In this document: positions 26,200 to 63,067 of the stretch, piece by piece
How positions within the stretch are numbered: the first letter of the stretch is position 1
How the letters are laid out: each line of letters opens with the position of its first letter
From: Cenococcum geophilum
Taxonomy: Eukaryota
DNA: 64,000 nt
Assembly (NCBI GenBank): GCA_050273025.1
Contig: CP158635.1
Location: 16,492,001 to 16,556,000 of the forward strand
Direction of reading: 5' to 3'
Notes under the pieces: generated by a model
Told to the model about the DNA's origin: nothing
The model's database searches: none
What the model saw: the letters and a program-made list of their open reading frames with translations, nothing else
Program-made: the position numbers and the translations under genes

Positions 26200-29100
26200 A
26201 GGGTGGTAGTGTTGAATTGAGGTTATAGAGCTAAAACTCTGTGTATTGCTTATTTTCTATATAGGTGGTTAAAGAGATTTTAAGGAACTTTGACCGCCGG
26301 TTAAAGTTGTCTAATTGGGTGCTTGTGGGGATTTAGCGACTCCTATCCCATGAACTCGCAGGTGCCTATTAAGATTTTCCGCTCGTAAAAAGTCTTTAGC
26401 GCATTTTGAGCCCTTAAATTTGGAATTTGGCATATCTAGAGGTATTAGAAAAAAAAAGGTCGTAGTATGAAGCCGAACTTACGAGTCCGTCTATATTGAA
26501 GCATGTCTTGCCTTCTAGCGTAGCTCCTCGAATATATATTATAATTTGCTTGTGGGGCTGGTGTGGACAGTTCCGAAGTGGAAGTGCTATTGCTGTTTAT
26601 AGGAGAGGTCTTTTTCTGCCGTACGGGCAGTGCAAATGGATGACCTCTGTGCATTCCCAAAGAACTATCAGGAGTTGTTGGGAGGGTTTATAGTGGTTCT
26701 ATCTGCCTAGTCTTTATACTTAACTAAGTAAGTAAATTATTAAATATTTCTGAGGACGAAGGGCTAGCCACCTAAAGGATCTTATTCTGAAGTGGTTGAC
26801 GCTTTATTAACTCTGGATGCGCTATATGGCATATCTAAATCTCGCTTTAAATCTCTCCAATATGTTATTTATCTTTGGCATCGATATTAATAGTTTTACA
26901 ATAAGCTGGGATATGTTCCTACTTTGTTTAAGCAGTGATTGAAGTAGTATAAGCTCTGTAGATGAATTATATTAGCATTTAGTAAAAATAGTAGGTGCGG
27001 TAATAATAGTAGATTAAATGAGACTAGATATATTTGATGGAGGTAGGCTATGTTAAAGGCATAGGTAGAGCCACCTTTATTTATAAGTTTATTTATAAGA
27101 ACTGTATCTATGATGTTAATGTCACTTTTAGGGTATGTCTATTGCGTATTAGGGTTGTAGAGATCTGTGGCGTAGCCGGCGGTTGTTCTAAAGGCCTAAT
27201 AGTGCTGTCTATTACCTAATAGTACCTAACCTTTAATGTACGGGTTGTTAGGAGGGGGTATAGAGTGCGCGCACGGATCTAATAACTTATGTCTTATTAA
27301 TGCCCGCTATATATTACTAAGCTAGGGAGAGTTATAGATATACCGGCAATAATGTAATGGGTATTTAAGATATATACGGAAGGCCACGCTGAATTACTCG
27401 TTGTTGGCTAAGAATTGGAATCCCAACTTATTGAACTTTGTGGAGGGGAAGGGATAGAGACATTTAATAAGACATTTAGTTATAAGTTAAGAGACAACTA
27501 AGACAAAGTGTACGTAAATACGATCTGGGTCGATAGACAGTAGTACGATGGTGGTAAGGGAATCCGATCTAGGTCGACACTCTATAGTTAAAATCCTTAA
27601 CTATTTAGACGACTAACAGCAAACACCGCCATTATATTATCCTCCCAGATGCCGCCGTACCACTAGACTATCTCTTTCTTATACAACAAGCGTGTCTCCC
27701 ATTATATTTTACTTTAGAAGCCTGGCAATTAGAACAGGCTCTCTAACTGCGTAAATCTCTATTAGGCGCTTCTAGGAATTCAAGGGCTCTATTTATATGA
27801 GTTTGCAGGTGCTTAGTAAAAGTGTCCGCTCGTGAAAAGTTTTTATTGCATTTTTGGCAGTTATGTTTTGAATTTAATATATCTAGATATATTAGAAATA
27901 AAAAAGAATCGTAACATAAAGCCGAACTTACGAGATCGTCTATGTCGAAGCATGTTTAACCTACTAGCGTAGCTCTTATAATAGATATTACAATTTATTT
28001 GTGGAGCTGGCGTAGACAGGTCCGAAGCAGGAGTGTTGTTGCTGTCCGTAGGAGAGGTCCTTTCCTGCTGTATAAGAGGTATAAATGGATAGCCTTTGTG
28101 CATTTCTAAAGAACTATTAGGAGTTGCTGGGAGGATTTGCTATGGTTCTATCTGCCTGGTTATTGTACCCGACTAGGTAAGTAAATTGCTGAATATTTCT
28201 GAGGATGAAGGGCTAGCTATCTGAAGGGTCTTATTCTAAAGTGGTTAATGCTCTGCTAACTCTAGATACGCTATATAGGACTCCTAAACCTCGCTTTGGG
28301 TCTCTCTAATATATCTATTGTTTGTCTTTAGCATTGGTGTTAACAGATAACCTAAATTAAGAGATTGTTACAGTGTCTCCTCTAAATTAGTAAAAGTTCC
28401 GTATATTAGAGGCTGCCACGCGCTATTATTATCTATTATCTCTACAAGTGCCGAAGCTAAGAAGTCCCACCCTAGATTTATATTGTTATTGCCGGAATCT
28501 TTAATTAAGTAATCCTTAGGGCTGTTATCTATACTTTCTATTCTAGCTAAGTGTATGGAGGTAGACGATTGAGAAAAGGTAGGCGGCATTGGGGCTATTG
28601 GTGCGCGTAGGCAGACCTTAGGATTATTTAGAGTCTAAGATAGATGATTTGCCATCCTATTAATTATTTGGGGAACTCCTATAACAGGCCACGTATTGTA
28701 AGTGCCTGTAATTATGTTACCCTGCAGGCCGAAGTTCGTACTACTAGGCGGCGCTGTTGTCTATGCGTAGGTGTTAGTGGATAGCACTAGATATGCTAGG
28801 AAGGGGATAGATGTACTAAGCTAGCAATAGTATCGGGAGGTTTAATATATACTTAGTCGCCATTATACTTCTCTCTATATTCTTATACGTCTTGCTTTTT
28901 TATATCTTAATATATAGGTGATTAAAGTAGATGAGCTTGAATAATCTCTAACTGTATGTTTAGATAGCTTGGCATATCTAATAATGGAGGGGTAGCTAAC
29001 TGAAGGACTATATCCTGCAATTTTTCAGACTCCTTTGGCTCTAGAATTGACCGCTTAAGGCCCGGAAATATTCCTGGTATACTGAGGCTGTTAATTGTTA

Positions 29101-30740
29101 ATGAAGTCTGCGAATCGCGGCCTGATAGTACTTGCTTTTCATTATATAAGGCTTTAGGAGTAGGTAACTATATGGGTTTACTGAGGGTAGAATAGTCATG
29201 CGGATCTACTAACTTATATGTTATTAATACTGGCCACCTTAGCAAGCGCATAATGGTTATAGATATACCGGCCACAATGGAATTATTACTTGAGGTATAT
29301 TTGTAGGGCTGTACCAAATTATTTGTCGCTAACTGAGAATTAGGATCCCGCCTTATTGGATCCTGTAGAGGCGCTATAGGATAAAACTGGTTCGAATCCT
29401 CAAATTTGATTTACTTAGTGTTAAATTCTACCATTTCTAGGACCGGTACTGTTGTGCACCACCCTTTAAAACCCGAACTATTTGGTTTATTCTAAAAATA
29501 GTTTTGCACAATATAAGTGGCATAGGCTGCCGTATTCCGACACATAACACTAATGCGTTCGCCTAAAATTTCCGTAGCTGCAAGCCCTTCCACCGGTCGT
29601 TTACTGATCGGGGGTGGGTGGGAATCTATATATGGGCCGCTGTGTATGGGATAAATTACAATTTCGTGTTCTGTGCGACTGCTGGCGCACCTAAATGACT
29701 ATGTACATTTTGGATGCCCGTATTTAAAGGCTCTTGTATGCCGGTCTATATACTCTCTTAATACTAAATTAGACAAACTACTAATAAGGGGTAGCTCTAT
29801 ACTTACTCGAACTTTCTCTTATCCGGAGTGGGTCCGTACTTATATTTAGGTCAATATGGGCAGTGAAAGAGACGGTCTGCTCTAGGGGGGATCTGATAGT
29901 AGTGGTGTTGACGTCTTGGTGGCCTATTAGCCGGATTTGTTTGACTTCTTGCCTTAGTCTCAGTTCCCGTATTGGCTTGTTTGGACTGGGGATTTATAGA
30001 ATATTTAGTAATTGTTGTAGAGGATTGTAAATGCCTTCCAATATATAATTGCGCTTGGTTGGTAGGAGAAGGAATGCCGGCCGAAGCTATAAGGGAGGAA
30101 GTAGGGGGCGGGGTAAATGGGAAATCGGGCCCGTATCCTGAATTACGTGTAATTAGAAATTTATACGTATTAGCAAACTAAGGAGGGTTACGGACATACC
30201 TGTAAATAAACCTAGTTGAAAATTGGAACTCGACTCCACCAAATCCAGGTTCGTCTGAAGGGGCGCCGCGATATTATTTGGGGCTAAATCCAGGTTTTGA
30301 GTGTGTTGTCTTATATGGTTTTTTAATTTGTACCTCTTAGTGAATCCGTTGCCTTCTTGGGATTTCTTGCAATTTGAATATGGGCAGAGGTAAGGGTTGC
30401 GGCCGCCGTGCATTCTATAGGCGTTTCTTTTATGGCGATAGAGGTTACTAGAAGTCGACACAGTCTCCTAGCAATCCTTAAATCCGCATTAAACCCCCGG
30501 TATTTAGTTTGGGGTTAAATACGGATTTTGAGAGTGTTTTCTTCTTATATGGTCTCTTAATTTGTTTCGCTTAGTAAATCCGTTACCTTCTTAAGATTTC
30601 TTGCAATGTAAATCTGGGTAGAGGTAAGCGTTGCGGCCGCCGTGCATTCTGTGGGCGTTTCTTTTATGGCGATAGAGGTTATTAGAAGTCGACTTAATCG
30701 TCTTTTGGCAATCCTTAAATCTGCATAAAACTTTCCGCAT
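26200..30740 (-). pseudogene. large multi-C2H2 zinc-finger protein with internal duplications
   Basis: Two 78-aa units, each CxxxxC..H..(H)RMHGGRNxYLCP..C...EGNGFTKR.KL..HIR.H (30290-30740). Further fingers near 29650-29880: LFHCPY...RE(H)MDRHTRAFK(C)GHPKC. 3' limit approximate. Confidence 0.65.
26340..28335. repeat. ~540-bp diverged direct repeat, copies at ~26340-26880 and ~27790-28335
   Basis: Colinear matches at ~1450-bp offset, e.g. AAGCCGAACTTACGAG and AAGTAAATT..TAAATATTTCTGAGGA. Confidence 0.85.
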
Positions 30741-31299
30741 TAGAATTAGTCCTATAAGTGGCTAGCACTAAAGGTATTAACTCGTCCGGAAATCGGGAGA
30801 TATGGATAAATAATTTGCTATATAATGAGATATGTTTTAATCTGAAGGGGAGTGGAAGTTAAGGTTAATATAAGGAAGAACCCGACTAGCTCTCCATAAG
30901 GCATCGTTAGCGTTAAGTAGTTGCGCTAAAGGCTTGTTAGGTATAGGGGGTTATAAAAGAGGCTTGTATTGTCCATCATTAAGGATCTCCCGCAGATCTG
31001 TTGGATGAGGTCCCGACGGAGAGAGACTGACGGAGGGGGAGGAAATGGGCTTGCACCTACCATTTCTTGGGCTATGACCCATGGTATCGGATAAGGGGTA
31101 GATATAGAAGAAGGAATGTTGTATTTAAGTTGGCGTTCGTTGTCTGTGTTATGGTTGGCTACCTGATCGGACGTGTTCACCTGAATTAAGGTGGCTGGCT
31201 GTAAATGTGCATGGTTTACAGCCGCTTGTCTTAAAGTCTGTGGTAGGGTAATTCCCGTGGGGTACGTATTGTATAATGACTGCCTTTAGATTCTCTACT

Positions 31300-34200
31300 G
31301 GATTAATTTTAAGACTACGTGAAGGATTTATATTGCGCTTAGGAACTGTATACTTTAAGAATTTGCTTAATCCCTACAAATTTAGCGCGCTAATAAACTT
31401 ATATGCATAGAACTAAGAAAATTCTACAATAACTATAGAGAAGTAGACTTAAGTTTCTAACCTTTAGTTAGGATGCAGATTGTTAACCGTCTCCTATTGT
31501 CCACCCGCTGATAAGTTATATGCCCGTGAGTGATATTGTAACTTGCCTCTGCTTCTAAGTCCTTAGTTTTTTTAACTAGTCCCCCTAAAGGATGTATCCA
31601 TCCGTCTTAACCTTAAGAATATAAAGATGAGATGTTGACTTAGTATGCATAAATAATAACTAGATAATTGAATACTTATGTAAGCAATATTGTTGAATAC
31701 CGTACTAAGATATAGCCTGACTGGACATTGTTGAGTAACCTCTATCGCAACGTTATTTGCGAAGTCTCTGAACCACTCCTTGCGAGATTGATAATCTTTA
31801 TTCTCTTTAGGTTGCCGCTCCGCCCAGTTTGCAGCCTTTGTTATAAGTATTATAATATATTTGAGATGTAGATCTCCATCGGAACCCTCTCGTAGCGGTT
31901 AGTATTGAAATATTCTTTGGGGAGCGTGAGAATAAGGAGGGAGGTATTATAGATTTTGTTCTTTAGGAGAGTTAATAACAATTGTATGCGGAAATCTAAT
32001 CTACTAGTAGGGTGTACGAATTATGCTTGAAATTTCTATTAATACTGCGCCGGTAACACTACGATCTATTAATAATATGGAGACGAAATCCACTCTCACT
32101 ATCCCTAGTTATATGGTGACGCCCTAAATGCGACCAGTTACAATTTTCCTTTGTTAGGTTTATAGGTTAGGAGTGTATAACGGGGCCGTAGAGTGGCTCG
32201 TATCCTCTGAGTTCCTAAGAGGTAACGAGGGAGATTTGTATGCTCTTTTTGAGCCGAGATTTTGTTCTAGTGTTTTAGCGATGACGGATAAGGAGATGTT
32301 TATGGGCTGTAAGATGTGGAGTCGTTAACGTAAAACCTTATCCGTTTGTCTCCATTTCTGTCAATGTATCTATATACCTGAATAGTAGATTGTTTATAAG
32401 TCGTTTCTGGGCTTAGGTTGCTAGCTGGTTGGCCTGGCCTAAAATAGGATAAAATATATCTGGCCTATACTATAAAAGGTGAGAAGCGAAGGTTAAAGAC
32501 AGATATGAAGTAAAAATTGCCCTATAACTGTTAGTGATTTAAATAAGAGTAGCTAGAAAAAAAGTACCTAGTATATAGCTAAGCTATCCTTTAGAAGTTT
32601 TAGTGGGAGGACTAGGGATATAATAATCGTAACACTTGTGAGAAATAGTGAGATGACTTGTATCTAGCCCTAGATTCTAGCGCCTCTACTTATTAAGCGA
32701 AGTAAATACTTTTAGCATTCCTAGGTTAAGAAGTAGATTAGATAAATTTGCTTTATAACAAGAATGCTATATATTGAGCAGCGTACTCCGGCTTTTATCC
32801 TAAGAGTTCTACTTTAATAAATTCAGTGTTTAGAGTCTAAAGTTAAAACCTTTTATTTACACAAATGCCGAAAATAATGTCAAAGCCACCTCTACTATGG
32901 TAAGAAACGACCATCCGGCTAGAACCCTGTAAGAGATGGCTTGGCCAGACGTTTCTGCTACGCTAGTATTGAGTAATGTGGTAGTTTTTAGGATTTGCGA
33001 ACGATATTAGCTATAGAGAAGGAGGTTAGGCACCGCACTTATAGATAAAAATATTACCATTTCTAGCGCGCAATCTATTACTGCTAGGGAAATATTTTCG
33101 AACTTCTGTCTAGTCTTGTGCTGCTTTTAGGCGATTTCTAAAAATGCAAATGCCGAAACTGTAAAAGTAATGTGTGCCCCGTGAGCAATGACCATAAAAA
33201 CCTTAGTGGAGCTGTAGAAGGGTGTATGTTTCTAAAAAAGGATGTAAATGCTAATACCTATTGCAAGCACGTAAGCTATAGTAGTAGTAATAGTGAAGGA
33301 AAGCACGATTGCGGTAGTATTGAAGGAATAGGTAGAGTCTATTTCAATAAATAAGTCCTGTTAGTCTAAGTGGCGTAGAAATAAGGTAAATAAGACTATA
33401 GTTTACCCAATTACGTTAGAGCAGAGTGCATCTGCAAGGAATATAAGGTAAAGAAAATTGGTGAGGCCTTAAGGCAACGGGGCAATTGTGTGATTAACGT
33501 GCGTCTTTGATCGCCAGGCGTAATTGCTCTATATACTACTAAGCGTCCGTCCTCCCCCTGCCGTGATATTTGATATTGGACACATTTAAGGATTTCTTGA
33601 TAACTGCCCTCCCCTAGAAGCCAACGTCAGCTCCCTGATAAAGGGGTATTGCTATAGCAATTACTTCTTTCTTCTTGGGGAGCGCTCTATGCCGTAAAGC
33701 CGAAGAAAGATTGGGATTTGTTGTATGTTAAGCTGCCGCTAAATTTATATGGGAATGTTAATATGCCCGTAGCTTACAGCTTATAGCCTTTGAATGGCAA
33801 CTCTATTTGTTTCTAGGGATCGTTTGTGAAGGCTATAAAGATGACACCGAGACTCAGGCTAGGCCTGCCCGTGGGATCTCTGATAAAAAAATCGTTGTAG
33901 CTTGGGGGTTTTATGGAGTCTTGTATTGGCTTCCGCCATGAGTTTGTTTCCGGAAGTTTAATAAGGCGTTGAAAATCTAGCCTCTCTATGGTGGTATTAG
34001 TACGTTAGTGCTGTTATTTTTTTTGATTATTTGCGTGAAAAGCGCCTATGTAAGGAGGCTATGAATATTCCTTCCTGTTTGGGAGAAGGGGCTATGTTAT
34101 TGAATTGGATGGTGGCTATAGGTTGTGCTACTGAGAACGCTAATATAGCCATGGCTATATTAGCGCTCTCAGTGGCGCTCTCTAAACGACCTTAAGGTAT

Positions 34201-34300
34201 AAGCTTCCCCCGGATATATCTATTTCCTAGTAACCTTTCTATATTTATACCAACGGCCTTTAACAATAGGCGCTGACCTTAGTAGGCCTGAATTCTAAAA
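31300..34300 (-). pseudogene. polytopic membrane protein, unknown family
   Basis: The de-RIPed frame gives about six hydrophobic stretches at 32450-33350 (e.g. IAYVLAIGISIYILF, GWSFLTIVEVALTLFSAF) between soluble regions. Boundaries approximate. Confidence 0.35.
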
Positions 34301-34499
34301 ATTTACGCATTTATCATTCGATAAGGCTATAAAGAACGAAGAGGTACTTTAGTTAAGTGTCCTTTATATAAATTCGCTAACTCTTCTATAAGTTTAAAGA
34401 TCTTGTTGCTTCCTTAGTCTAGACATTGCCTCCAGAAACAAAGCAGGCTTTAGGATCTCTTGTCTTAAACAATTATTTAGTATCTAATCCTTCTCGAAA

Positions 34500-34770
34500 A
34501 GAATTATAAGCCGCTGAGCTTCTGTCTGATGCTAACGGTCCCTTATTAAACGACAGCTTAATATTAAACCCCTCTTAAAATGGACTACGAATGACTAAGT
34601 TTCCGTTTAATGCTAACGATCCTTTATTAAACGACAGCTTAATATTAAATCCCTCTTAAAATGGATTATAAGTCGCTAAGCTCCCGTCTGGTGCTAACGG
34701 TCCCTTATTAAATAACAGCTTAATATTAAACCCCCCTTAAAGAGAACTACAAATTGTTAAGATTTTAAAA
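34500..34770 (+). repeat. 81-bp tandem repeat x3, in frame
   Basis: GCTAACG unit starts at 34531, 34612 and 34693. Confidence 0.9.
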
Positions 34771-35920
34771 GGTATAAGATTTTAGTGCTTACTAAAAATA
34801 ACGCCAGAGTAGCTCTATATTAACCCTAAAATCTGAAAGCAGTACGTAGGGTAGACCGGTAACTGGACTCTCCTCTTTACTATACCTATAGCCTAGTTAC
34901 AACTATAAGGAAATACTATTGCCTACTCCCAACTATAAAGAGACTTTATTATCCACTTATAACCTTGGGGAGTTATTAGTGCTAGCTTGGGTGCGCTATA
35001 TAATGCTACTGTGCTTATTAAGCAGAATGCTCTTATTGACTCCATCCGCTGGAGATTCCTTATGGTGTTCTATAACGGACTATGTGAAATGGTTAAAGAC
35101 ACGGAAGCACTAGCTGTACTTATCTCTAATAGCACTGGGATCGGGCTTAAGGAGGTGAAGGAAAAAATGGATGGTTGGGTTTTAGATAGTAGAAGGTGGC
35201 GTGCTCTAGCACTATCTCTTAGTTAGGGTTCCTTATTTCTGCTTCTAGAATTAATAAGCAATGATTTATAAGTACCCGAATATCTAGAAAGGTTAAAATA
35301 CTAACAATCTAGATGGCTTCGTCTGCCGCTAAGTGGTTATAACCGCGAGGCGGTAGTTGATAAACTTAAACTTTTGGGTATTGTAGAGAATGCGTAGTCT
35401 AAAAAGGTGGACGACTTGGGCGCAGACAAGCTGAGTGCTGACGAGCTCGGTGTGACGATTAAAGACGGCTTACTAGACCCCTTTAAAGATATTGCCAAAT
35501 CTGTCTACTACTAAATAATAGAGGTAATAAATGCTCTTAAGCGGGGACGGCGCTTAGTTGCGAATAAAAGCTATAGGTCCAAAAAAGCCCGTCGTGATAT
35601 CCCCTCTACCGCTCCGGTAGTTACTCAAGATATAATTTTAGGTGTGGAGATAACTAGACCTAGTGATGAGAGCTACTACCTGGCGGACTACGGCTTAGTA
35701 CTACAACCGGGTCTTACCTAAGAAAGGGAAGATGGTATAAGTGGGCTAACCGTAAACGTATAAGTCTTGGTTACTAGCCGGAGCCCTAATCCAATATAAG
35801 GAATCTTTCCGAAATCTTCCTATGGAGGGAACGACGTAAGACTAGGCGCGATTATCAGCCCTATTAACCCTTACTATAATTTGTATGTAAACTCTCTAGT
35901 CCGTCCTACTGAATACTGGT

Positions 35921-36243
35921 AGGGTGGGCTATATAACTACCTAAACCTACTACTTGCCTAGGATCCTTCTACTCTTTATAAATTTTATAAGGGCGGGCTA
36001 TATAACCACCTAAACCCGCTACCCGCCTAGGATCCTCCTACTCTTTATAAATTCTATAAGGGTAGGCTATATAACCACCTAAACCTGCTACCCGCCTTGG
36101 ATCCTTCTGCTTTTAACGAATTCTATAAGGGCGGGCTATATAACTACCTAAACCCGCTACCCGCCTGGGATCCTTCTACTCTTAATGAACTCTATAAGGG
36201 CGGGCCATATAACTATCTAAACCCCCTACCTGCCTTAGACCCT
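35921..36243 (+). repeat. 69-bp tandem repeat x~4.7, in frame, Pro/Tyr/Gly-rich
   Basis: Unit starts at 35921, 35990, 36059, 36128 and 36197. Confidence 0.92.
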
Positions 36244-38266
36244 TTAAGTCCTATTTATTAAGGTTAATATTGAGGGCTGCCAGATACCGGATTGATGAAT
36301 GGCGCCCTGCCCACCTTTTACGAGAATAGTGGATCAGCAATGAATAGCTATGTTGATTCCTCTTCTACCGCTTTCTCTATAGGGTATAATAATGGCTCTA
36401 ACCCGTAAGCCTTAGCAAATTCTAGCACCCTAGGCGTGATATCTTCCTTAAATTTTAACAGCATTCCGGCTTTCAACTATGTATAACCCTTGCGTTCTCC
36501 TTACCCTTCTATAGTTACCTACGAGATGGTATTTTGACGAAGCTATGTGGATATATGCGCGAGCCCGCCTCCCTTACCTTTAAAGTACTGAAGCATATCC
36601 TCCGGCGCAGCTAGCATATCACCGCTCTTAAGCTAAAAGGGCTGGAAATTTCTTTCCCTTGAGACTTGAAATAGCGGAAACCCGTTATCCCGATCTAAAT
36701 TGCTAAGTGCTAATATTACTATAGCCGTATTCACTGATCCGCGCACGCTGGGGCTAGGTTTTTCTAGTTTTGTGTATACTACCAGGAATGAATTTTTGAG
36801 TGAGAGCTTATTGGAGGTAGTGTTAAGTATAGTAGCGGCGTGTTCTTTAGCTTTCTGGTTCTTATTTATTAGCATAAATTATGTATTATAAATGTCAACA
36901 GTACCTCTAGGTATGTAGAAATAATCTTCTTTATTTTTGGAGGGGTGCCTAGTGTATAGAGAGGCTCTGGAAAGTTGCGCGAGGAATAATATTCGCCCTA
37001 TATTGCTAGTTGTTTACGTAAGCTATTTGTATCTTGGCTCTCCATACTACGGAGTATCTTTGGTGTAGTTATAGTGGTGCCTGTAATAAGTAAGACGCGA
37101 GTGCGGGATGTAGATGTGTTAAACAGCGGGTAATAAAAAGTGATTATAGTGGGGCTGATTTCGGTCTAGGCAGTGCCCCTTAGTATAGGCACGTGATATT
37201 TAGACGTCTTAAGGCTGTTATTTATGCCTATTGCAAACCTTATTCCTGTCGCTCTAACAAGAAACGTTATACCATAAACCCTTTCACCGGCCTCTTTTAT
37301 ATATACTGCTATAACTAATATATAAGTCGCATATTACTTTATAAATAGATGCCTAATATCTCCACGTAGATGCATAGGCGGCGCCCCTTCTCCTTCCCGT
37401 TTACGCATTTCCCGCTAGCGTATATTTTAACAAGACCCTAGATAGTATACTGCACGCGACCTTTGACCGGCCTCCGTTGTGCGTAGCGCCTCTGGATAAT
37501 GAATATGTAGCTATACCGATTCCGCCTACCAATTCTTATTTAATCCTAAAGGTAATACTTGTAGGTAAGCAGCTCTACGACTAGCCTCTCTATTTAGAAT
37601 AGATATGCTAATATCTTGCCCTCCGTAGTTGTATATGCAAATTCTCCCTAAACTTCCCAGTGCCTGGAAACCTCCGCAGATGCATATACGGCTTACTCCC
37701 TTATATTTAGCGCCTCCTAATTTACGCCCTGCTTTAAGATATATTTGTAGCGTCTTCTTATCTTATACCGTCTGGAAATCCCAATTTAAGCCTTAAATAT
37801 CATTCTTAACCTTTATCAATCTTTACTACCCGTAATACTAACACTGGCCCTATATTCTATAAGTGTCTGGAGCATAGCTAGAGGCGAGGCGATATTCGCC
37901 CTGTAGGGGCTTCCCATTATACTAGTTCGTAACCTCTGCATATATGTCTGTGGCACACCCGCCTTTAATTTAGGCTTTAATGCCTCTAAGATAGGCATTT
38001 ACCGGTCTTAGTTACCCGCAGCACTAGTATTAGTGAGGCATTGACACGCCTTTGTCACTACTGTATATATACACCCTAAGCCAGCTTGGCTAATACACAC
38101 CGCAATCTATACCTCGCTATTGGATCTACAACATCAAGCCGATATTTTAGTAGCGACGTCCCAAACCAAAATTTTGCCTTTATTTAGCTTAATACTCTAT
38201 TAGAAAAACCGTTTTTACGCATTTACGTTCAGCATCAAATTAATCTCTATTACACTTTTTGCCCAA

Positions 38267-41200
38267 ATGGATTGACAACGCAGCTTCGACTATTTTAAGA
38301 ATCTTCCCTATTAAACCGAGGATGAAGTGGATAGAGTGAGGGCTCTGGAGAGTTGCGTAGGGAAACTCTATATCGCGGTGGCTATAAAACAGTATTGTCG
38401 CGCAGACTCTTTACTAATGTGTATTTTAAACTTATTATACCTAAAATTTAAACTTCCTCGCAATACTTATCTGAAGCTTGTAAGACTTTGTTTCGAGCTA
38501 GGGTTAGTATAAGGGTTAGATATAGGATATACAAGAAATTTTCAAAATATGTTTGTGACTCTGGTAAAGTAATAGCTTTCTTAATCATTTCTCCTAGTTT
38601 AACATTTTATTCGCTAATATACTACTTACAGTTGGAAATACCGCCTTTGGTATAGGAAAGTCCTAATACTTGATTGGAGACGCGCTGTTAAAGAACTTAA
38701 GGCTAAGTTCCTGCCTAATAAATCTAGAACCGTTTATCCTAAAAACATAGACCGTCTTACCGGCTTATTGATCCGAGTTTGTAAGTCCGCTTGTCTTTAC
38801 TTTAATCCAGAATAGATTCCTGCTATATTTAAGGAGTTTCTGCCCTACTTTAGCATTATTAACCCAGAGCATGCATATGTGGTAATTACGTTACTTAATC
38901 TATTGTTCCTAATAGTCCCTATAGAGCAGACTACCGAAAAGCAACAATGCTACCTACCAACTCTCTTTAATGCTTGGTCCTAGGTTACTTACTTATAGTT
39001 TGCTGACGAGAATTTTGTTAATCTATTTTCTAGGCTCGCTAAAGACTCTTTACTCGTAAGATATATCCCGTTTTTGGAGTATGGTGTCTTTACCAATTAA
39101 CAATCTGCGCTTATTTTCACTGCTATTTTACGGCTTCTTAATATACCTAATAAAAACTTAAACTCTGCTTATTAATAAGTTAGAGAACATTCTCGGAGAG
39201 TAAGGGCGTAACTTAAATCTGATACCAAAAGCCCTCCTACTACCCAGAATGTCGCTTAATTGATTATAATGTCCTTATCTCCCGCCTGTTTAGTCTATTT
39301 AGACTTGGTTTTATTAAAGCTAGAAAACCTCCTACAAGCCGTTGAGATATACTTCTATCCATTAAATTCTGGCGACTAGACTCTAACCTTATTATAACTA
39401 GTCTTCCATTTAGCTGATATGTTCGTCTTACGCTGGAATTAAGAGCGAAGTGGTGAGATGGAGGTATTAGATAAGAGGAGACTTAATAACGCTCTTAAGC
39501 GTTAATTCGTACTATGCTTACGGGAGGCCGTATTTATAGGAATTTTCGCTAAGACACCTTCTGCCATGGAACTTGCTATATTAACTCTTTAACTCCTAGC
39601 CTTTTTTAACTAGGACTTAATCCTGCCTAAAGCCCTCTAGCGGATATATCTAGCCATCTAGGGCCTAATTAAAGTCCACAGAATAATACCCTTAATCCGA
39701 GCGTTGAGCGTACTGTTTAACATTATAGCAAAGGCGAAAGGCTATAGGTGTTACATTACAACACTCCTTAGGCTTGTCCTTCCGGGTATTAACGCCAATA
39801 ATCTAGAGAAGATATTACACATATTATCCTGCATAGAAGTTATATCCTATACGGTACCGTTCCACAACCTAATAAAGGAGAAGATAGCGGGTTATAATAA
39901 GCTAGTGCAGGAAGATAATATAAATACCCTAGCGGAATACGACTTATACCTGGCTGAGCGGTAGATAACTAATTAGATCGTCCGGTTAGAAAGCGGCGAC
40001 ATTGATATTAACTATAAGAAAGAGTTAGACGACCATCAGGAAAAAGCAATTCTGAAGTTATCCACCGTAAAAGTCTTAGGATTTGTCGCATTACTATTTA
40101 ACCGGGTCTTCGCCCTTCTGGAGAAGTTAGAGAGGCCTAATAGTTTCCGTTTACATAGCAATTACTTGGAAAATAAGGTGCTGTATATGCTTAGAAGAGC
40201 ATCTACTATATTTCTTGTAGTATTATCGCCGGATTTATTTAATATGGCGCTAGATAGAATCGCTAGATTTGTAGTAAGTACTGGCTTTTAGCAAACAAGA
40301 TCCGTAGTGGGTTTTTTATGCAATGTATTTGTAAAGGTTAACCCCAGAAAGTCTCTAAAGCGATTGCTCCCCCTTCTTATTGCTAGTATTCGCAGAGAAA
40401 TTAATATTTACGGAGCCGGTATAACGGTAGATATGGAGATACTACTAGGGGATTGTATATTAGTGTGGACCATGTATCTACTCGGTTATTCCTTAACTAA
40501 AGTTAGAGACTCTGTCCTTGCTTGGAAAAAAGAGCTATTCGCTATCATTAAGTACGTACAGCTAGAATGTAAAGGGAGGCCTAAGATAATTACCTCTGAT
40601 ATTACTAGCCGTCTCCTATATAATTTAACAGCTATATATATCATCAATCACTTAATCTATAAGAAGGACGAACTTAAGAATGAACTTACAATACAAGCAT
40701 GGGGTAAAACTGCCGACTTAAAGCATGTTATATAGCACAAGCCAAGTAATAAGGAAATTAACTTTGCGGCTAAACTGTTTAGCTTATAGTGCAATATAGC
40801 AATTGATTCTTTGGCTAATTTAACTAGATTTACGCCATTAATCAAACAAGACGGTACTGGGAAAGAGTGGTCCGACGAAGTATCTTAATACCTTTACCTT
40901 CTTTAATTAGTAATATTAGGGATCTCAACCCTTTTCGATCCTAGGGCTGACCACAGCAATCTTATTATGGGCTGTGACGCCTTATACCAGAGGGGCGGAA
41001 TTGATATAGATGGTGATAAAGACGGTACTAATTTAGCTAAAATAAAGGACAAGGAGCTAACCTTCCAGCATATGTCGGGTTACCCCTTAGATCGAGGAGG
41101 AGAGAATTACTAGTTGGTCCATAAGCTGCGCCGCGAGATAGGTAGAATTATTTATAAGACCCACCAGTTTCTATTTGTAGAGTAGTAGGATAAACCGTAA

Positions 41201-43932
41201 TGCCTTAAGGCGTTGTGCAATGCATCTAAGTTATAGTTTACCTAAATAGGTTCCTACAATGACGAAATGTCCAAAAGGTTAAAGATTTTCGAAGCTCGGC
41301 TTGCTCTATTTAAGTTTAAAAGGCTCTAAAAGGAATATCTAAGGCCGCTACTTATTAAGCGGGCATAGTTATATCATTTTTAGAGGTTGAACTGTAACGT
41401 GTACTCTAGGCCCCTAAAGAAACCAGAGCTAACTAAGCTACTGCTTTTTAACCTTGTTAATTTAAGCTTATCTGCTTATGAGGAAGTTCGCCAAAGCGCA
41501 GGAAATGTACTTAATTAGGTAGTAGGCCAATTTCTAAGGACCGCACCACTTGTTATTCTACTACTTCTGGACGCATTTATACGAGTAGTGGAGGGGGAAA
41601 ATCTTATAAGCATTAAAGGCGCAATGACCTGTTTGTTATCCAGCTGTATATAGTCTGAAATTTCCTAGCATTAGGGATACATTCTATGTGCTATAAAAGC
41701 CTACGTCGAGGCTACTTAAATTAAGAACGATTCTGTGCAGAATCTTTTAAGAGATAAGGAATAGTAAATTATAGACATTGTCAGACCTTGGGAATGCGTA
41801 GTTATTCACCAGTATAACTTTGGAAAGGCCATTATCCCAGAGAAAGTTAAGGCCTAAATTTAGGTAAGAAGTGACTTTATAGCGAGCGAGAAAGTAAAGT
41901 TGTTAAGGGATTTTATTTAATTGACTAAGGAATCTTACTAGAAGATAAAATAGTATCTAATTATAAAGATTACAGAAAACCTTAAAGTTGCCTATAGTTT
42001 AATTGCTTCTAAAGCGTTTATCGATATAATTATAGAAGCCTCTATAGATTCTTATCCGGACCTTTGTCGCATCTCTTAACAGGTTATATATAAGATCTTT
42101 AAGTTAGTGGATATATAAATCTTTACTAAACGCAAATATAACAATTATCTTTAAGATGTCGTCTTAGACCCTAACAAAAACCCTTGGACTAACTCTGGTT
42201 ATAAGTCGGATTTAGGGTCTAAGACTTCTACCGAAAAATACTATACGGATGAGGACCCTTAAACGATAGTGCGGAGTAAATCTCCGTAGGTAGCACGGCT
42301 TATTACTATAGGAGTTACATATGACGACCTTAAGGAGAAGGTACTCTCCCGCATTGCGCAGCGATTGGATTAAGAATGGCTATTAAAGTAATTAGAGTTT
42401 ATGAAGATAGAACCAGATTACGAATTCCAAGAGTCGCATTACATGTTAATTTATTATATATATCGGCTTTTCTTAACTAGGTCTAACTTTGCAGATATTC
42501 GAAAATTCGCAGAGAGTGTTTTCGAAGCGTATAGTAACGAAAACTACTGCGGGGTCGCTATAGAAGCCATGACTGCGTTATTCCTTCTTCTTACGGTTTT
42601 AGCCCTATATATACTGGAGATGTTTTGGGAATCCGTCTTACCTAAGGCCAGAACGGTTTTACAAGAGCGGTTAGCCAATAAGAATTAGGAGAAGTTTTTA
42701 AGGCATATAATAAAAAATAACAACCTAAAACAATTCTGGCCACTTATTAAACCTACGTTTCACGTTAGTATGGAATCTAATGCAGCATCTTAAGATTCCC
42801 TTTAGATTAGTCTGCTAGGCTTAATTATTTACTATACTGGTCCACAATATCCAGAAAAGTAGGAGATTTTACAAGGCTTTATAGAGCATCTTAATTATCC
42901 GTATAATGCTATCCGTTTAGTAACGGGCATAGCGCTAGCCCGTATAATAACAATTAGCAAGTTATATAAGGATGTTGACTATCTTATTAACGCACAGATA
43001 AAATATTCTTTAGTTAGTATCCGACTATATTAGTTAACAGATAAGGAATCTACAATAAACGCTAAGGTCCTTCGCCGACTTAATATATAGCAAAAGCACG
43101 ACTAAGATTCTTACGTCCGGGCTATGCGCACCCTTTTAATATGGTAGGATACCTGTCTGTTATCTTATAGTTATACTTAGCTGCTTAATTTCCCGCACGA
43201 GAGGCTTATCGAGCTTATCCTCTTCATGGTTGCTATTAACAAAGAGACCAAACTCCTAGTAGAAGAAATCCTTAATAAGCTTTCCAATGTCCCTTTCTGC
43301 ATAGATAAAGTTGGACTATTTGTCTCTGTTTTAATCTGCGTAAGAGCTAAAGTAGAATCTTAGCGTTACTGGTCTCTTATTTTATAGTTTATAGATATTT
43401 TTAACTACCACAACCTGTTCCTTATATTGGACAATTAGTGGTGGGACCTTATTAAATATGTCAATAACATGATTTTTAATAAGTAGCCGAAAGTCCGAGC
43501 TAAGGCCGCCAATACGCTCACTAGTATAATTAGGGCCTTACCTATAGTGTTTAGCATTAACCGTCGGCGGCAATTATATATAGTGATGTTAAAAAAGAAC
43601 CATTAACAATAATAGCAAATTCATGGCGCAGTACTCGGCCTTAGTGCTTTACTACTGGCATTCCCGTACTAGACAGCCCTGGCATTATAGCAACGGAAAG
43701 TATTAGTTATACTTGTAGAGACCTTGCGCTTAGGTTTAGGGCTGGTGGACAATAGCGTAAAGGAAATTTTGGCGGTCTTTAAGGAGAAGAGATAAGATAC
43801 ATGGCTTAAGGACAGAGAAGTAATTATCCCCCATTAGATGATTCCAAATAATGCTAAATCGCCTATTAGGGATTCTCTTTAGATCGGCTAGAGGTCTTAG
43901 AAGATATGTAACCGATAAGCTACTTCGCCTAG
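38267..43932 (+). pseudogene. BLM10: proteasome activator BLM10/PA200 homologue, full length, RIP-inactivated
   Basis: N-terminus YFKNLPY(Q)TEDE...KLYIAV...LKFKLPR...KLVRLCFEL, then YF(H)P(S)NSGD(W), LPGI(D)AN(D)LEK and HGAVLGLSAL.LAFPY. C-terminal HbYX motif SYFA-stop at 43918-43932. Introns retained. Confidence 0.9.
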
Positions 43933-45536
43933 AACTATTATCCCCCCAACTAGCAAATAAAGGATAAGAGGTAAGTGAGAAAAGTAAGGGAAATATAATA
44001 GAAGTACTTGATAAGAAGGCAAGTAGAGAAACTAGCAGGTAGTATAGTCGTCATAAATTAATTTAATAAAATTTTTCTTTATTTCTGTTAGGTGCCAGTA
44101 CAGTATATAGCTGCGAGGCGCATGCTATTCGCATGCGAGCTACATGCTGCGCACGTGACCCGGGAGACCTCTTCCATGCCCTTGCACTAAGACGCCCCCT
44201 TTCCTTAAGGATTCGTCTTTTGGTTTCTTGCAACCTACTAATATATCCTATTATTCTGTTAATTGGACTCCCTGTCTACCTCGTGCCTTATATTAATAAA
44301 TATTATTTAAAATAATATTATACTATATACTATATGTTGACCAGACAATTTAGAATGAGAGCTTTGTCTTTTGAAATGAGACTTTGGAGCCTCTAATAGA
44401 ACCCTAAAACGCGTTGCCCTTCTATATACGCCTACCACTATCTAATATCGGCTCGCTGAATCTAAATAGATGGAGTTTTAACTCTAATAAATGCAGTAGG
44501 GATAAATATAGACGTAAGACGTAGCGGTTAGATTGAGATACGGAGGAAGGAAGTAGTGAATGGGCACGGCACAGAGTGAAACGGGGCGAATACTTATAGC
44601 AACCCAGTAGTCTATGGGCGATGTACTATTCTAAAATCTTACTAGGCACTTTAACGCCACCTATGACCTGTTATCTATCCCTTCCCCTTTAGAACTGGCA
44701 TTGCTGGATCTATTAGATGGACTATAAATATTGTATTCGTTTCCTTAACTAAATTCTCTTAGGTGCCTTATGATGGATAAAGCCCCATCTTTACAACTAG
44801 GTCACGCGGTTAACTCTGCTTAATGTTAAGGGATTAGCTAAGACGTTGCCTAAATACCCTCTTATATTAAGGCGCTATATTTCGATTTATGCTTATTAGG
44901 CTGCAAGCTAAGCCTTACTTTAAGTATTGTTGGTAAACGTCTCCGTCGGTAACGCAATACCTATTAACTAGCTTTAGCGAAAGAGTATATAAGACCCCCT
45001 TATACGATTATAGCGCGTTAGTGGACTTAATCTAAATAAAGAGTGAATTGGGTGGCGATACAGGACTATATTGACTATATTAGTGGGGCGCAGCACGCGG
45101 GCTGTAATAGAGAAGTGAGGATCGGATGGCTTAGCACCAAACTTATAGAACGAAAGGGCTGCTGTAGATGGGTGTGTTATTAGTAAGGGAATTTCTAGTC
45201 AACCTGCTTGGTTAACTAATTTGCTAAAGCTGAAAGCGTATGTATTATATAGCTAGACACTAAATAGGACGTACTAATGCTTTGGTATTGCATACGCCCA
45301 AAAACCTATAGCTATATGATCAACACGCGCGTTTAATAATAAGGCCCGATCAGTCATTTTCGGAGCCCCTTAAAATCCCTAATCTTGTGTCGCGACTATT
45401 TTATATACGGCCACTGCCAGTGTATAGAATTTGTTAATAAAGGCCCTTGGTTACCGTTAGGGCTATATATATATATCGTATACTTCTCTATTAACTAATC
45501 ACTTAAAGTGATTTAAGGATTGTGAATGTTAAGACA

Positions 45537-46280
45537 ATGTTTGTTAAATTTGACGACACTATTCTGATTATAAATATTGACCCTAAACCTAGGCCATTAC
45601 TTCTTAAACGCATTCTCTCTTATCTACTCTCTTATCTATATAATAATGGGGATGGCCGCTATTAAAAGATGCGGTTTAATAGAAGTGGGTAGTTTTAGGC
45701 TAAGCCATCTATACCCACTGCTGATTAACGTTTAGTTGATGACTACGTTAATGGCATTCCGAAGGCAGCAGTAACTATGTCTTTAGAGCCGCAGTTTATA
45801 ATCTTTTAGCGGTTCGCACTGGAATTAATATAAGTCCTTTTGTGTTACTAGTGCAAGGTTAGCGAGGCAAAAAAAGCACTAAATAATTATAATAGGGAGC
45901 GCACAGGCGATATCATATCCTTCTATAATGAGGAACGAAATAAACTCTTAACTGCCTTGGATAGTGCGCTTCGGGACTACGGTAAATTAACCTGAATATA
46001 AACTTATGGCTGTGAACGGTAGCTAATATATCTAGGTATAAGGGTGGCTCTTGCCTAATAAATACTTAGCATCCCTAGGCCCAATAGTTGAGATATGCAC
46101 AGCTTTTTCAATCTCTTTTACAACGATAAAGAGGTTATGGAAGCGTTTTTTAAATGTTATACGGCTCCTATGTCTGACCTGTTTACACTCGGTACTCGGT
46201 GGGATTTATAGCTTTACGCGCTGTTAGGTCATTCGGCCTGCCGATCTCCGTTTCTAAAGGTATTCTCACCGCATCCTTAA
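45537..46280 (+). pseudogene. multi-exon hypothetical protein
   Basis: ATG, several GT..AG intron-like segments and coding-like frames between them. No domain recognised. Confidence 0.3.
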
Positions 46281-47453
46281 GCCTAAATGTACTGATTAAA
46301 GTAGCGTATCTTGTTAACGGCGGAACAGATAGCAAGGTCTAATAATATAATTATTAATCTAATAGACAATACTAGGATTATTTATTTAATCCGAATTATG
46401 TGCTATCTATTCTTAGTTATCTTTTTATGGTCACTATATTTTACTACACTTTCCAGTGCCATTGTTCCTTTTGCCACTATATTACTCATTGTTAGAGATA
46501 TGTCGTTCCACTAAGTATTCGTTCCTATTGCAGCGTATGTCTTAGGCCCTGTTTTTCTCCTTTATAAACACTAAGGTAGCATACTAACCGGAAATTTTAT
46601 ATAGGTTTTGTATTATATATAAGGTTATAGCTAAGAGCGGCAGTAGCCCGGTTATAATAGTTTAGACCTACCCCTATAACTGGAGCGATAAAGTACTATT
46701 GGGATAGATGGAAACAGTAACCGGGGAAAGTTTTCTATAAGGGCCTTAGAGCCTGGATCTAATTTAAATTCGTTATTCTTAATTTAATACGGTCCCTTTA
46801 TTTTTTTCTTTATAGAAAAGGAATGTACTGCTATTTGTTTTGCTGTAAGCTGCCCTTAGGCTATCTGTATCTTTCTTATGAAAATTTTATCCTATCGAAA
46901 ATAAATAAATCGGGTTGAAAACTTTCCTGCTAGAATTATATCTATTTAATCCTAAAAACCCTTGTCGCCTTATTTGTAGCAGGCTTTGAAGCTTGGCCGG
47001 TCAGGCTATGATAAAGGCACACGCCCGTCGATTCAGTGGCGGGCCTTGCAGTTATCGTAGAGGATGTTCGTCGCTCCGAAGCCAAGGGGCTCTACGGCGC
47101 GAGATATAGCAAGGCATCCGGCGAGGCCCCGTGGCGTTGGCGTCGGGTTTATGGCGTCCGCAATAGGCCGCAAGGACTGGCCGGCAGCTGCGGGTTGGCC
47201 GTTACTAACTGTAGTGTTAGCGGGCATGGGATGGTAGCGGGCGAGGCGCGAGGGCTAGGTAGGTAGTAGGGGTAGCAGTAGGACGTTGTCTTTCCCTCCC
47301 TTTATAGACAAGAGCTAAGGGGACATTAGGAAGCAAGAAATAGTTACGTTAATGGATTACTTATCTAACGTCTACTCGCTAAAGTAAATTGAAGCCTAAG
47401 TTCTATGATTCTATGAGATAATAGCTGCTTTAATTGCTACTATTTGCTAGGGT

Positions 47454-48039
47454 TTACCATTTCTCTACCTAGTAACCTCTAATAATGTCCAGCGAGACTT
47501 ATAGCAACCTATTATTTTATATTAGGCTGTTTATATCGCTGGAGGAATATTTTATACCTAATCCTCTTTAATATGTTTCTTAAACACTAACTTAATCACA
47601 TTTTTAAAGACAGACTCTATTATATTAACTCTTAGCCGCAAAACTCCATTCCGTTTCTACGGGTGTACTTTATTAGCTAAATTTAAAATGGCCTATAGGG
47701 ATATGCGTACTTCTAATTCTATAAGCTTCTCCCACTTACCCTTTAGCACCTTTACCCTTTACTCTAAGGCTACCCTTTCCTCCTATAGTTACCATCCTGT
47801 TAGATAAGTAGAATACTTCTAAGAGGCATATATACCTTTTTAAGCGCTAATGCATCCTCTAGGCCCTCTATAAATAGAGTGGAGGTGTATAAATCTGGAT
47901 ATTGAGTGTCGGAGGTTTGGCTAGATGCTATACCATTTCCACCAACAAAGTAGTATAAGAAGCTGTGTGTATTGACTTCTCTAGTATCGGCGGTATGCGT
48001 AGGCACATTACCCTCCGTGGGCGATTTTTGGAAAGCCAT
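47454..48039 (-). pseudogene. small coiled-coil protein, paralog A
   Basis: MAFQ... and YTSTLFIEGLEDALALKK, an intron, then ERVALE(Q)RV. Homologous to 63068-63770. Confidence 0.55.
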
Positions 48040-48743
48040 TCCGTGAATTGAAATATTGGTAGAACTGACGATAGCTAGTTGAGTATGGAGCGTGCCTTAT
48101 ATATTTGGTAGCTACTCCTTAAGTAATTAACAGTTTAATAAGAGCTTAGGAATAGATTACCAGAGGATGGCGGTTTGGAGTTTTTAGCGTGTTTAATAAA
48201 GAATTTTTTTTTTAAAGAATAAACGTCGTTTAATAGAGAATTCATGCAGCTTACCCGCAAAAATTGTAAAAGTGGTCTAGAAATTCTAAGAGAAAAGTCA
48301 AGTTCTTGGGCCCCCTGCTTTATAAAGCTGTGCCGTAGTTAACGCTTACGCTCGGTTGCGGGTTAGTAGAGGTAAGATTGTGCTTTAGATTTCTTATCAT
48401 TATGGGCTCTCCGGCTTTCTACTTTACAAAAGCTGTGCTGTAGTACACGCGTTGCATTTGTTACGCGCTAGGCCTTTTACTAAACAAGTTACGAATAAGG
48501 GATTAGTAGGGATAAAGTAGGGGACGCACATTCTATCTGTGCTTACTTATATAAAAGCGGGGTTATATGATAGTTACAATCTATGCAGGTAATAGTTTAT
48601 ATGAGTTAATGCGATTATTACTCTTGTTTCCCTTGGCAAACTAGATAAATAAAGAAATTAAATGCGCTTTGTTTATCTAATTTCCTTAGGGAATTTAATA
48701 AGAAGCGAGACGCGGCGAAAACAGGACTAGGTAATAGTGGTGC

Positions 48744-49051
48744 TATCCTATACGCCGTTAAGAAAGGCGTACGCACAAGCAAACCAACTAGAGTCACTAG
48801 ATTGAATTGAGTCTTGGCGAAATAAAGTTGTAAATTTGATTAGCGAATTAAGGCTCTAAATCGTTATAATAAAGCTTAAAATTTATATATAATTGATTCT
48901 ATTGTATGCTAATTAGGCTAGTAAGGTCCTTCTTTATAGAGGGGTATATTGCATAAAGTATAGCCGAATTGAGTCCTTAGAGGAGCGTGTTAATATTTTA
49001 GTGTTCGCGTATGGGCCTCTTTTGGCGTACGCCTCAACGGCGCATAGGATA
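48744..49051. mobile_element. MITE-like element related to 3106-3257
   Basis: TATCCTATACGCCGTT..AGGCGTACGC is complementary to GCGTACGCCTCAACGGCGCATAGGATA. Shares internal TAGTGTTCGCG(C/T)A(C/T)GG and AGTCA(A/C)TAGA motifs with the 3.1-kb element. Confidence 0.55.
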
Positions 49052-62290: not shown

Positions 62291-63067
62291 ACTTTTAGGT
62301 ATATTCTTGTAGCAGAATCCCTAAGGATCTCTATATTATTAACAAGCTAATAAAATAGGAATGGCTATAACCACCTCGCTTACTTACCTACTTACCCACT
62401 TACCTACTTACCTGCCTCACCCACCTTATCTACCTTATCTACCTCACTCGCCTTACCTACCCCTCTACCCGAGATAATAAGCACGGTAAGCTTTATAATT
62501 TAGTTTCCGAAGCTTGTTTGACGGGCCTTATAAGGGTTAGCTCCTCCAAGCTGGTGAGGGTTTTCTCTTAGGTAGTCGCGGACCACGACTATGCCGCGTA
62601 TAGGCTAGGATTGCACGAGCTGGGCCAGATTAGCTAGATCCCTTATAGCTAAGATTATCCCCTGTTTATAAGCGCAGACTTTATCTAACCTATATTATAT
62701 TGACGCCGGCCCCCTGCCAAAGCTTTTCTATACTTTATGAAGTACCTCTACCGCATATCAGACGTGGTGGCGCAGAGTAGGACATTAAGGGAGAATCGGT
62801 GATTGTGTACTATTACCTAACACTAAGCGACGCCCGTTAATCACACTATTTTATATTGCTAGACGTTTTTTAGCTGTTTATATCGTTGCTCCTATGCTAG
62901 GGGTTTATAACATTTGTCTAATGACCTGTATTACTTATTTATAAAAATATTATAAGGGAAGCTCTTATTAAACAATTAAATACTTAAGGGGCAGCTACCG
63001 AATATATAACGCCACGCTCGGTACCCAACTAGCTCTTAGCAATTTTATCAACCTTTTGATTTACAGA

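Follow-up and report, generated by a model that had tools for sequence, protein, structure and literature searches.

What is the Blm10/PA200-like gene that lies at positions 38267–43932, on the + strand, of a 64,000-nucleotide stretch of the Cenococcum geophilum genome (assembly GCA_050273025.1, contig CP158635.1, positions 16,492,001 to 16,556,000; this whole stretch is called the window below), and how did it come to differ so strongly from the Blm10 of the same lineage? Blm10/PA200 (PSME4) is a proteasome activator that docks on the 20S particle via an HbYX motif, a hydrophobic residue, a tyrosine and any residue at the extreme C-terminus, and it has a role in the turnover of acetylated histones. 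An initial interpretation made from the letters of the window (the sequence-only reading) took the gene to be a complete, highly diverged activator carried as cargo by a mobile element. Our analysis concluded that the locus is very probably a pseudogene copy, inactivated by repeat-induced point mutation (RIP), of a lineage-specific, multi-copy and fast-evolving family of Blm10/PA200 paralogues.

Identity and coding state of the window copy

The gene frame was translated with stops read through as X and searched against Pfam. Three regions were matched, HEAT_PSME4_mid (PF16507) over profile positions 1–524 of 524 (E 1.6e-120, 403.8 bits), PSME4_C (PF11919; E 6.7e-10, 39.1 bits against a cut-off of 22.5) and BLM10_N (PF16547; E 2.1e-8, 34.8 bits against a cut-off of 27.2), the last over only profile positions 38–74 of 81. 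The same three regions occur in the same order in native Blm10/PA200 of C. geophilum (P0122), Glonium (P0123), yeast (4v7o) and human (6rey, 6kwx), and sequence matches to solved structures were obtained with the human PA200 chains (E 3e-31) and with yeast Blm10 (E 1.8e-13). A tblastn search with the native protein returned a single high-scoring segment pair, placing residues 53–1948 onto 38279–43813 in one frame, and found no further Blm10-like piece elsewhere in the 64-kb window. The gene is colinear with Blm10 and free of frameshifts; no counterpart of the first ~52 residues of native Blm10 was found in the window by tblastn or in the alignments.

Two introns interrupt the gene (Table 1). 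The first coincides with a 21-residue gap in the alignment with the relative P0256 and is bridged by an RNA joint, 38557>38636, supported by 17 reads, which has 15 letters between its ends and a net loss of 63 nt. The second is supported by 74 spanning RNA reads, of which 72 have their first mate on the - strand and two on the + strand. The Pfam and PDB matches, the tblastn alignment and the RNA joints bear out the sequence-only reading insofar as it described a colinear Blm10/PA200 homologue of ~5.7 kb with introns.

The description of the gene as complete and intact did not hold. The unspliced frame from the ATG at 38267 comprises 1889 codons with 83 in-frame stops, all except one being TAA or TAG (82). 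After splicing, the coding sequence of 5553 nt (1851 codons) contains 75 stops including the terminal one (42 TAG, 32 TAA and 1 TGA), that is, 74 premature stops, nearly all of them in exon 2. The longest open stretch is 147 codons, no counterpart of the N-terminal ~52 native residues was found, and the window copy has no open reading frame (ORF) that could give a protein of ~1850–1970 residues.

The retention of the frame and of the HbYX motif, which had also been claimed, was confirmed in part. The codons AGC TAC TTC GCC TAG, encoding SYFA and a stop, are present at 43918–43932, in a different frame from exon 2 because intron 2 intervenes, and SYFA is the tail of the six native proteins shown (of the 23 natives in the tree), each ending in LEGVLWKSYFA. 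The absence of frameshifts and the survival of these codons agree with the claim, whereas stops interrupt the frame and one TAA sits five codons before SYFA, and translation of the window copy cannot reach its HbYX-type tail. The window copy is a full-length RIP-inactivated pseudogene without a functional protein product, and the redirection of host proteasomes that had been suggested is not possible for it because the 74 premature stops block its protein.

Compared with native Blm10/PA200, the window copy is colinear over native residues 53–1948 and has the same last residues, but it is only 41% identical (47% for P0002, its closest relative, which is open and described below), multi-copy, interrupted by premature stops and matched only from native residue 53 on.

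RIP signature, divergence beyond RIP and origin of the family

The signature of RIP is uniform along the 5.7 kb of the gene, with a gene-wide TpA/ApT ratio of 1.41 and a composite RIP index of 0.67, both of which exceed the thresholds in common use. In a protein search with the window copy, 6353 candidates were scored, 287 had E values of at most 1e-10, and the best 120 of these were taken. Among the matches listed, one outlier, P0002 (an ENA protein of 1671 residues), was 68% identical, compared with 39% for the native cluster and 33–38% for other Dothideomycetes. Codon-by-codon comparison of the window copy with P0002 found 1146 of 1647 positions identical (69.6%) and 501 mismatches, of which 340 were explainable by C>T or G>A only and 56 by the reverse direction; once RIP-type changes were credited, identity rose to 90.2%. 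Of the 72 stops aligned to P0002, 62 were RIP-explainable. The sequence context was that of RIP, since an A followed 152 of 185 inferred C>T changes (82%) and a T preceded 118 of 172 G>A changes (69%), against a background of 41%. The 74 premature stops were produced almost only by CpA>TpA and TpG>TpA transitions.

The comparison with the native gene gave a different result. The native Blm10 of C. geophilum strain 1.58 (P0122, 1970 residues) is a separate, intact and annotated protein that clusters with the Glonium protein P0123 under P0003; the Cenococcum/Glonium lineage has its own intact Blm10, distinct from the window copy. Between the window copy and P0122, 749 of 1815 positions were identical (41.3%); 336 mismatches were explainable by C>T or G>A only and 98 by the reverse, and even with all RIP-type changes credited the identity reached at most 59.8%. 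At 730 of the 1815 positions the two differ in ways that C>T and G>A changes cannot make. The sequence-only reading was therefore right that differences from the fungal Blm10 proteins exist beyond the reach of RIP.

It had been set out beforehand that this reading would have to be given up if the locus proved to be the native gene with its conserved surroundings or a recent duplicate differing by RIP alone. Although the best named protein match among those listed is the native-lineage cluster P0003 (39%), both possibilities are refuted by the 730 differences, by the separate existence of P0122, and by the flanks of the locus, which are RIPed repeats and not conserved genes. Since both introns were kept, the locus does represent an old duplicate made at the DNA level, as had been proposed.

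RIP itself was tried as the driver of the family's divergence from the native gene and was rejected. In a three-way comparison, the window copy and P0002 agreed with each other and differed from the native protein at 528 of 1611 positions, and these shared derived changes had no clear RIP direction (103 forward versus 74 reverse; 177 versus 151 at the amino-acid level), the controls between native proteins being 53/50 and 112/98.

The extent of the divergence is unusual for this protein. Native Blm10 proteins are 67–97% identical to one another (63–97% over the 11 native and metagenome-derived sequences compared), and for the Cenococcum protein the identities are 96.8% with Glonium, 86% with Mytilinidion, 67% with Aspergillus and 68.5% with Rhizina. 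P0002 reached only 41–47% with the natives, with its highest values against Cenococcum and Glonium (47.3–47.4%). Many Blm10 proteins from JGI and Logan collections (P0020 and P0031–P0060) are ~1760–1850 residues long and carry no BLM10_N annotation; the three that were checked (P0020, P0031 and P0045) are 78–84% identical to Cenococcum Blm10 and are native orthologues with short gene models, outside the divergent family.

A tree of 24 rows, the 23 natives and P0002, was computed by a quick search under LG+G4 with Rhizina as outgroup. P0002 fell inside a nine-row Pleosporomycetidae clade with a Shimodaira–Hasegawa-like approximate likelihood ratio support (SH-aLRT) of 100, in a polytomy, on an end branch of 2.02, compared with a median of 0.25 and 0.02 for Cenococcum. 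The placement of so long a branch is uncertain. In approximately unbiased (AU) tests, neither a sister position of P0002 to Cenococcum (p 0.125) nor one to Cenococcum plus Glonium (p 0.434) was rejected, and the simplest reading of these sequences would be a duplication of the lineage's own BLM10 followed by a roughly 100-fold acceleration.

A horizontal origin, in which the family was acquired from another, unsampled Pleosporomycetidae fungus instead of from the host BLM10, is decidedly unlikely. It would fit the free tree, in which P0002 is not grouped with Cenococcum or Glonium, and the lack of a Glonium counterpart of the divergent family among the protein matches listed. Against it stand the identity values, which are highest for these two genera, and both AU tests; furthermore, no sampled lineage has a comparable Blm10 rate (Pezizomycotina natives are at least 63% identical), so that a donor would not explain the long branch.

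Several properties of P0002 suggest that the reading frame and the conserved core of the family stayed under selection. P0002 is open across 1671 codons and is colinear with the window copy in one frame. Since its branch carries about two replacements per site, we infer that neutral decay would have left many stops. P0002 retains the native residue at 65% of the 457 columns that are invariant in the 23 natives and at 23% of the 244 variable columns, with 51% and 37% in the intermediate columns (Spearman rho 0.30, p 4e-35). The first residue of P0002 is a Met that lies opposite an ATA codon of the window, and its last residues, like those of the fragment P0262, are translated from intron 2.

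Copies, transcripts and the question of mobility

Contigs and RNA reads were aligned to the stretch 33000–49000 at a minimum likeness of 80%. The runs used included X1, which contained 86% of the stretch's words and possibly represents the source sample, X11 from another sample, and the RNA run X20 from a further sample chosen by species label; other runs under the species label contained only 6–12% of the words, as expected with diverged copies. In X1, 1304 contig pieces aligned to 33–49 kb and only 329 of them at 99% likeness or more. The differences were nearly all transitions (C>T 832, G>A 978, T>C 809 and A>G 472, with 21–39 places for each transversion class). Eight X1 contigs had another letter at 39852, and at least three versions of 41.4–41.86 kb were present (records 3, 4 and 5), record 4 being identical to the window. 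In X11, 16–20 contigs had another letter at 39625, 39852 and 40369, and summed contig depth was 286–733 over 37.3–43.7 kb, compared with 32–139 in most flanking bins. Other copies leave the window sequence at ~37.5–38.15 kb (loose ends at 37519, 37605, 37896 and 38148) and at 44.10–44.14 kb.

An island of G+C-rich, partly palindromic sequence, with GCATGC-type arms at 44120–44147, lies at ~44.09–44.2 kb in otherwise AT-rich DNA. It coincides with the points (44104 and 44138, in two runs) at which other family copies part from the window sequence, and may mark where a repeat unit ends.

The RNA run gave 11256 aligned reads, 8656 of them less than 90% alike and a single one at 99% or more; most were 80–90% alike and almost all were in one orientation. 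The differences from the window were dominated by T>C (823) and A>G (469) over C>T (103) and G>A (133), and the transcripts therefore come from copies without the RIP changes of the window copy. These transcripts were spliced at intron 2. In the protein collections, a search for shorter proteins found 11 further fragments that are 70–86% identical to P0002, all of ENA or Logan origin with no NCBI entry among them; in comparison with P0002, five were RIP-biased (for example 53 versus 10 and 57 versus 5) and three were without bias. Among JGI metagenome contigs, peptide patterns from P0002 gave 46 pattern matches with no relative among them, and a 40-letter pattern tolerant of purine/pyrimidine exchanges gave 0 matches. 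In conclusion, the window copy is part of a multi-copy family that has many diverged copies in a strain and that includes open and transcribed members.

The multiplicity of copies also bears on the idea that the divergent paralogue exists in a single copy and owes its mutations solely to RIP that leaked out of transposons nearby. Leaky RIP is discussed for C. geophilum in its 2026 genome paper (PMC12910237), where 20.57% of the genes are given as lying within or next to RIP-affected regions. At this locus, several distinct contigs with transition-only differences cover the gene in runs of one strain, RIP is even over the 5.7 kb, and 11 diverged fragments exist beside P0002 in the protein collections, which makes this alternative very improbable.

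Some points weigh against the reading of a selected, expressed paralogue family. P0002 is known from a protein record alone, its ends resemble an unspliced ORF call, and its exons 1 and 3 need not be intact. Part of the gradient in its conservation is also expected if the split of the paralogue predates the divergence of the native lineages. Summed contig depth is not a copy number, and the count of distinct contigs, although a better guide, is still indirect; likewise, the copy number, the loci of the intact copies and the presence of the native gene in this assembly are deduced and not seen directly. The X20 reads do not tell which copy is transcribed, nor that a protein is made, and binding of family members to the 20S alpha ring is a prediction from homology.

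The sequence-only reading had placed the gene on a mobile element as cargo, and the surroundings were searched accordingly. One Pfam scan covered 139 stop-free ORFs of at least 55 residues between 13.6 and 64 kb, with + strand ORFs inside the gene left out, and another covered 22 read-through frames with few stops, chosen by a stop-density screen that discriminated poorly. Neither scan found a DUF3435 captain, transposase, reverse transcriptase or integrase adjoining the gene, with sensitivity limited on RIPed DNA, not all frames included, and the window ending at 64 kb. The matches of the first scan were only C2H2 fingers (27.7–30.5 kb, - strand), a weak HTH_28 (46042–46224), and HTH_46 and GIT1_C near the threshold of 0.01. 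Those of the second were only a weak Pol_BBD (15606–17195), a weak DUF6594 (~45.76–46.54 kb) and the weak C2H2 already seen in the first; a match to MgtE_N was below threshold, with no domain passing alone. A self-blastn comparison and a repeat search of the surroundings found no pair of long terminal repeats (LTR) or terminal inverted repeats (TIR) bracketing the gene, only short and probably chance repeats. The cargo claim has no anatomical support in the window.

That a Starship or some other giant mobile element nevertheless carries the gene, and that its transposition explains the copies, is unlikely, although it is compatible with the preferred explanation. This alternative would account for a multi-copy family whose copies vary in abundance between strains and have differing flanks, as the loose ends at 37.5–38.15 and 44.10–44.14 kb indicate; the neighbours at 34.1–36.7 kb and 45.3–46.9 kb likewise have transcribed, un-RIPed counterparts on the same strand, and duplicated DNA is a requirement for RIP. 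However, no captain, transposase, reverse transcriptase, integrase or LTR/TIR pair was found beside or around the unit by scans that are weak on RIPed DNA, and the stretch amplified in X11, ~37.3–43.7 kb, is the gene itself with flanks of much lower depth, unlike a large multi-gene element. Because the amplified stretch amounts to the gene with ~1 kb upstream, a small unit fits better than a giant element. Starship cargo and Pack-MULE and Helitron captures similarly involve host-derived genes in many copies in repeat-rich DNA with strain-variable content; typical captured fragments differ from the present case, in which a whole gene was kept with its introns and is open in some copies, and no captain, transposase or terminal repeats were found.

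According to the preferred explanation, that of a fast-evolving paralogue family, the family would have arisen by DNA-level duplication of the lineage's own BLM10 and would thereafter have had an evolutionary rate about 100 times that of the native gene, with its frame and conserved core under selection. Intact members, if they keep the HbYX tail as the sequences suggest, probably serve as an alternative activator that caps the 20S core particle. As the family was amplified, whether by its own mobility, by a ride on a larger element or by segmental duplication, its copies would have become exposed to RIP, and the window copy would be one casualty.

Surrounding DNA and meaning of the family

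The first 14 kb of the window differ from the rest. In 2-kb bins, bases 1–14,000 have a G+C content of 0.42–0.51 and a composite RIP index of -0.19 to -0.92, and all ten stop-to-stop ORFs of at least 150 residues are located there, none being present after 14.1 kb. Ordinary genes identified by Pfam in this part encode GMP synthase domains, BCCIP, a Macro domain and a CLC channel with CBS domains. Compared with its counterparts in Glonium stellatum, Lepidopterella and Mytilinidion, the GMP synthase reaches 97%, 93% and 85% identity, respectively; together with the native Blm10 cluster P0003, this points to a host in the Gloniaceae, most probably C. geophilum. Between 14 kb and the window end, each 2-kb bin has a G+C content of 0.34–0.42, a TpA/ApT ratio of 1.17–1.80 and a composite RIP index of 0.27–1.28, and the RIP-affected block is at least 50 kb long. 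The change at ~14000 from gene-bearing normal DNA to RIPed DNA is abrupt and marks the edge of a large RIP-affected region. Upstream of the pseudogene, the stretch that was co-amplified with it contains an intron-like joint (37561>37633) and is probably its 5' untranslated region or promoter.

Table 1. Features of the Blm10/PA200 pseudogene and of the rest of the window (positions are those of the window)
Feature	Position	Strand	Basis or remark
GMP synthase	264–1832	-	Pfam
CLC channel with CBS domains	~9–12.4 kb		Pfam
RIP-affected AT-rich block	14001–64000	.	RIP index, without long ORFs; contains the Blm10 pseudogene and continues past the window end
Upstream stretch	37272–38266	+	Co-amplified with the gene in another strain; same-strand transcription in relatives
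Exon 1	38267–38568	+	ATG start; BLM10_N match from profile position 38; relative P0256 has Met at the same place
Intron 1, 63 nt, GTAATA..TTACAG	38569–38631	+	Splice sites, gap in P0256, RNA joint
Exon 2, 5188 nt	38632–43819	+	PSME4 mid HEAT region and most of PSME4_C; Pfam, alignments
Intron 2, 50 nt, GTAATT..TATTAG	43820–43869	+	RNA joint 43819>43870, splice sites
Exon 3	43870–43932	+	Reads GFSLDRLEVLEDM, stop, PISYFA, stop; one TAA, then the SYFA tail and TAG
3' flank to the divergence point of other copies	43933–44138	+	Loose ends 44104 and 44138 in X1 and X5

Other remnants were observed in the RIP-affected block. Just inside its boundary, at 15606–17195 (+), there is a RIPed remnant of a Ty1/copia-type pol gene with a weak Pol_BBD match (E 0.002), followed by a stretch that resembles an integrase core by eye. 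RIPed remnants of C2H2 zinc-finger genes occupy 27700–30750 (-), with matches to zf-C2H2 (E 4.5e-5) and zf-C2H2_15 (E 4.1e-5), and internal duplications in this region pair 30274–30494 with 30504–30731 (84%) and 26358–26869 with 27805–28319 (78%). An inverted repeat pair at 47754–48147 and 62959–63457, 75–80% identical and 15 kb apart, probably derives from a single transposon present in two RIPed, oppositely oriented copies.

The pseudogene has two gene-like neighbours. At 34100–37100 (+) a RIPed frame of 767 codons with 33 stops was found that has no Pfam match; it contains a tandem repeat of ~23 residues with a motif like GGLYN.LNPLPA.DPSTLY.FYK (DNA repeats at 35921–36244), and RNA from un-RIPed counterparts covers it at a depth of 44–234 on the same strand as the Blm10 copy. 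At 45300–46900 (+) lies a RIPed gene whose un-RIPed counterparts are strongly transcribed (depth up to 469, with 1162 reads at one site); its introns, both GT..AG, lie at 46258–46302 and 46535–46604, and its only matches are a weak full-length one to DUF6594 (E 0.009) and a weak HTH_28 at 46042–46224.

PMC12910237 describes the C. geophilum genome as 73.4% RIP-affected, with 6,442 RIP-affected regions of 20 kb mean length, and gives 17.76% of its transposable elements as unclassified. The RIPed repeats described there share with the present locus an AT-rich block, a positive composite index, a CpA>TpA bias and stops; the mutated repeat here differs in being a host-derived proteasome-activator paralogue and not a recognisable transposon. 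The word 'proteasome' is absent from the text of that paper, and proteasome activator, PSME4, BLM10 and PA200 are absent from one of its supplementary files. A partial precedent is provided by the PA28 activators, for which PMC4453063 reports the fast-evolving duplicates PSME1/2 as derived from a slowly evolving ancestral PSME3 and as remaining functional. The shared pattern is that of a slow ancestral activator gene yielding faster duplicates, but PA28 is an unrelated activator family of chordates, with few copies, no RIP and no amplification to many copies.

Our literature searches found no paper linking Cenococcum geophilum with a proteasome activator, and no report of a proteasome activator as Starship cargo; the papers found on Blm10 together with fungal transposable elements proved unrelated, as judged by title and abstract. 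A fast-evolving Blm10/PA200 family with open, spliced and transcribed members appears to be unreported in the literature searched. The window locus itself is an ordinary RIP-killed repeat copy for this genome, and the greater interest lies in the family outside the window.

A more far-reaching proposal, which we hold as a tentative and on balance doubtful possibility, is that Cenococcum carries actively amplifying alternative proteasome caps. These would go back to a Blm10/PA200 paralogue freed from single-copy control, would multiply as a unit of their own of ~6–7 kb or on an uncharacterised element, would evolve about 100 times faster than the native gene, would be open, spliced, transcribed and able to dock on the 20S particle by their HbYX tails, and would have a function in conflict or adaptation while RIP culls copies. 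If this were true, such a function might be, for example, the reprogramming of ubiquitin-independent degradation in symbiosis, sclerotial dormancy or genome defence.

For genome annotation, the lesson is that repeat masking probably treats the family as an 'unclassified repeat' and so conceals real genes. Blm10/PA200 is regarded as a conserved gene, and a many-copy family at 41–47% identity with open, transcribed members would be a natural experiment. It would reveal how much divergence a 20S cap tolerates without losing its solenoid and docking tail, and in what way RIP restrains the growth of a gene family in a genome that is 73% RIP-affected.

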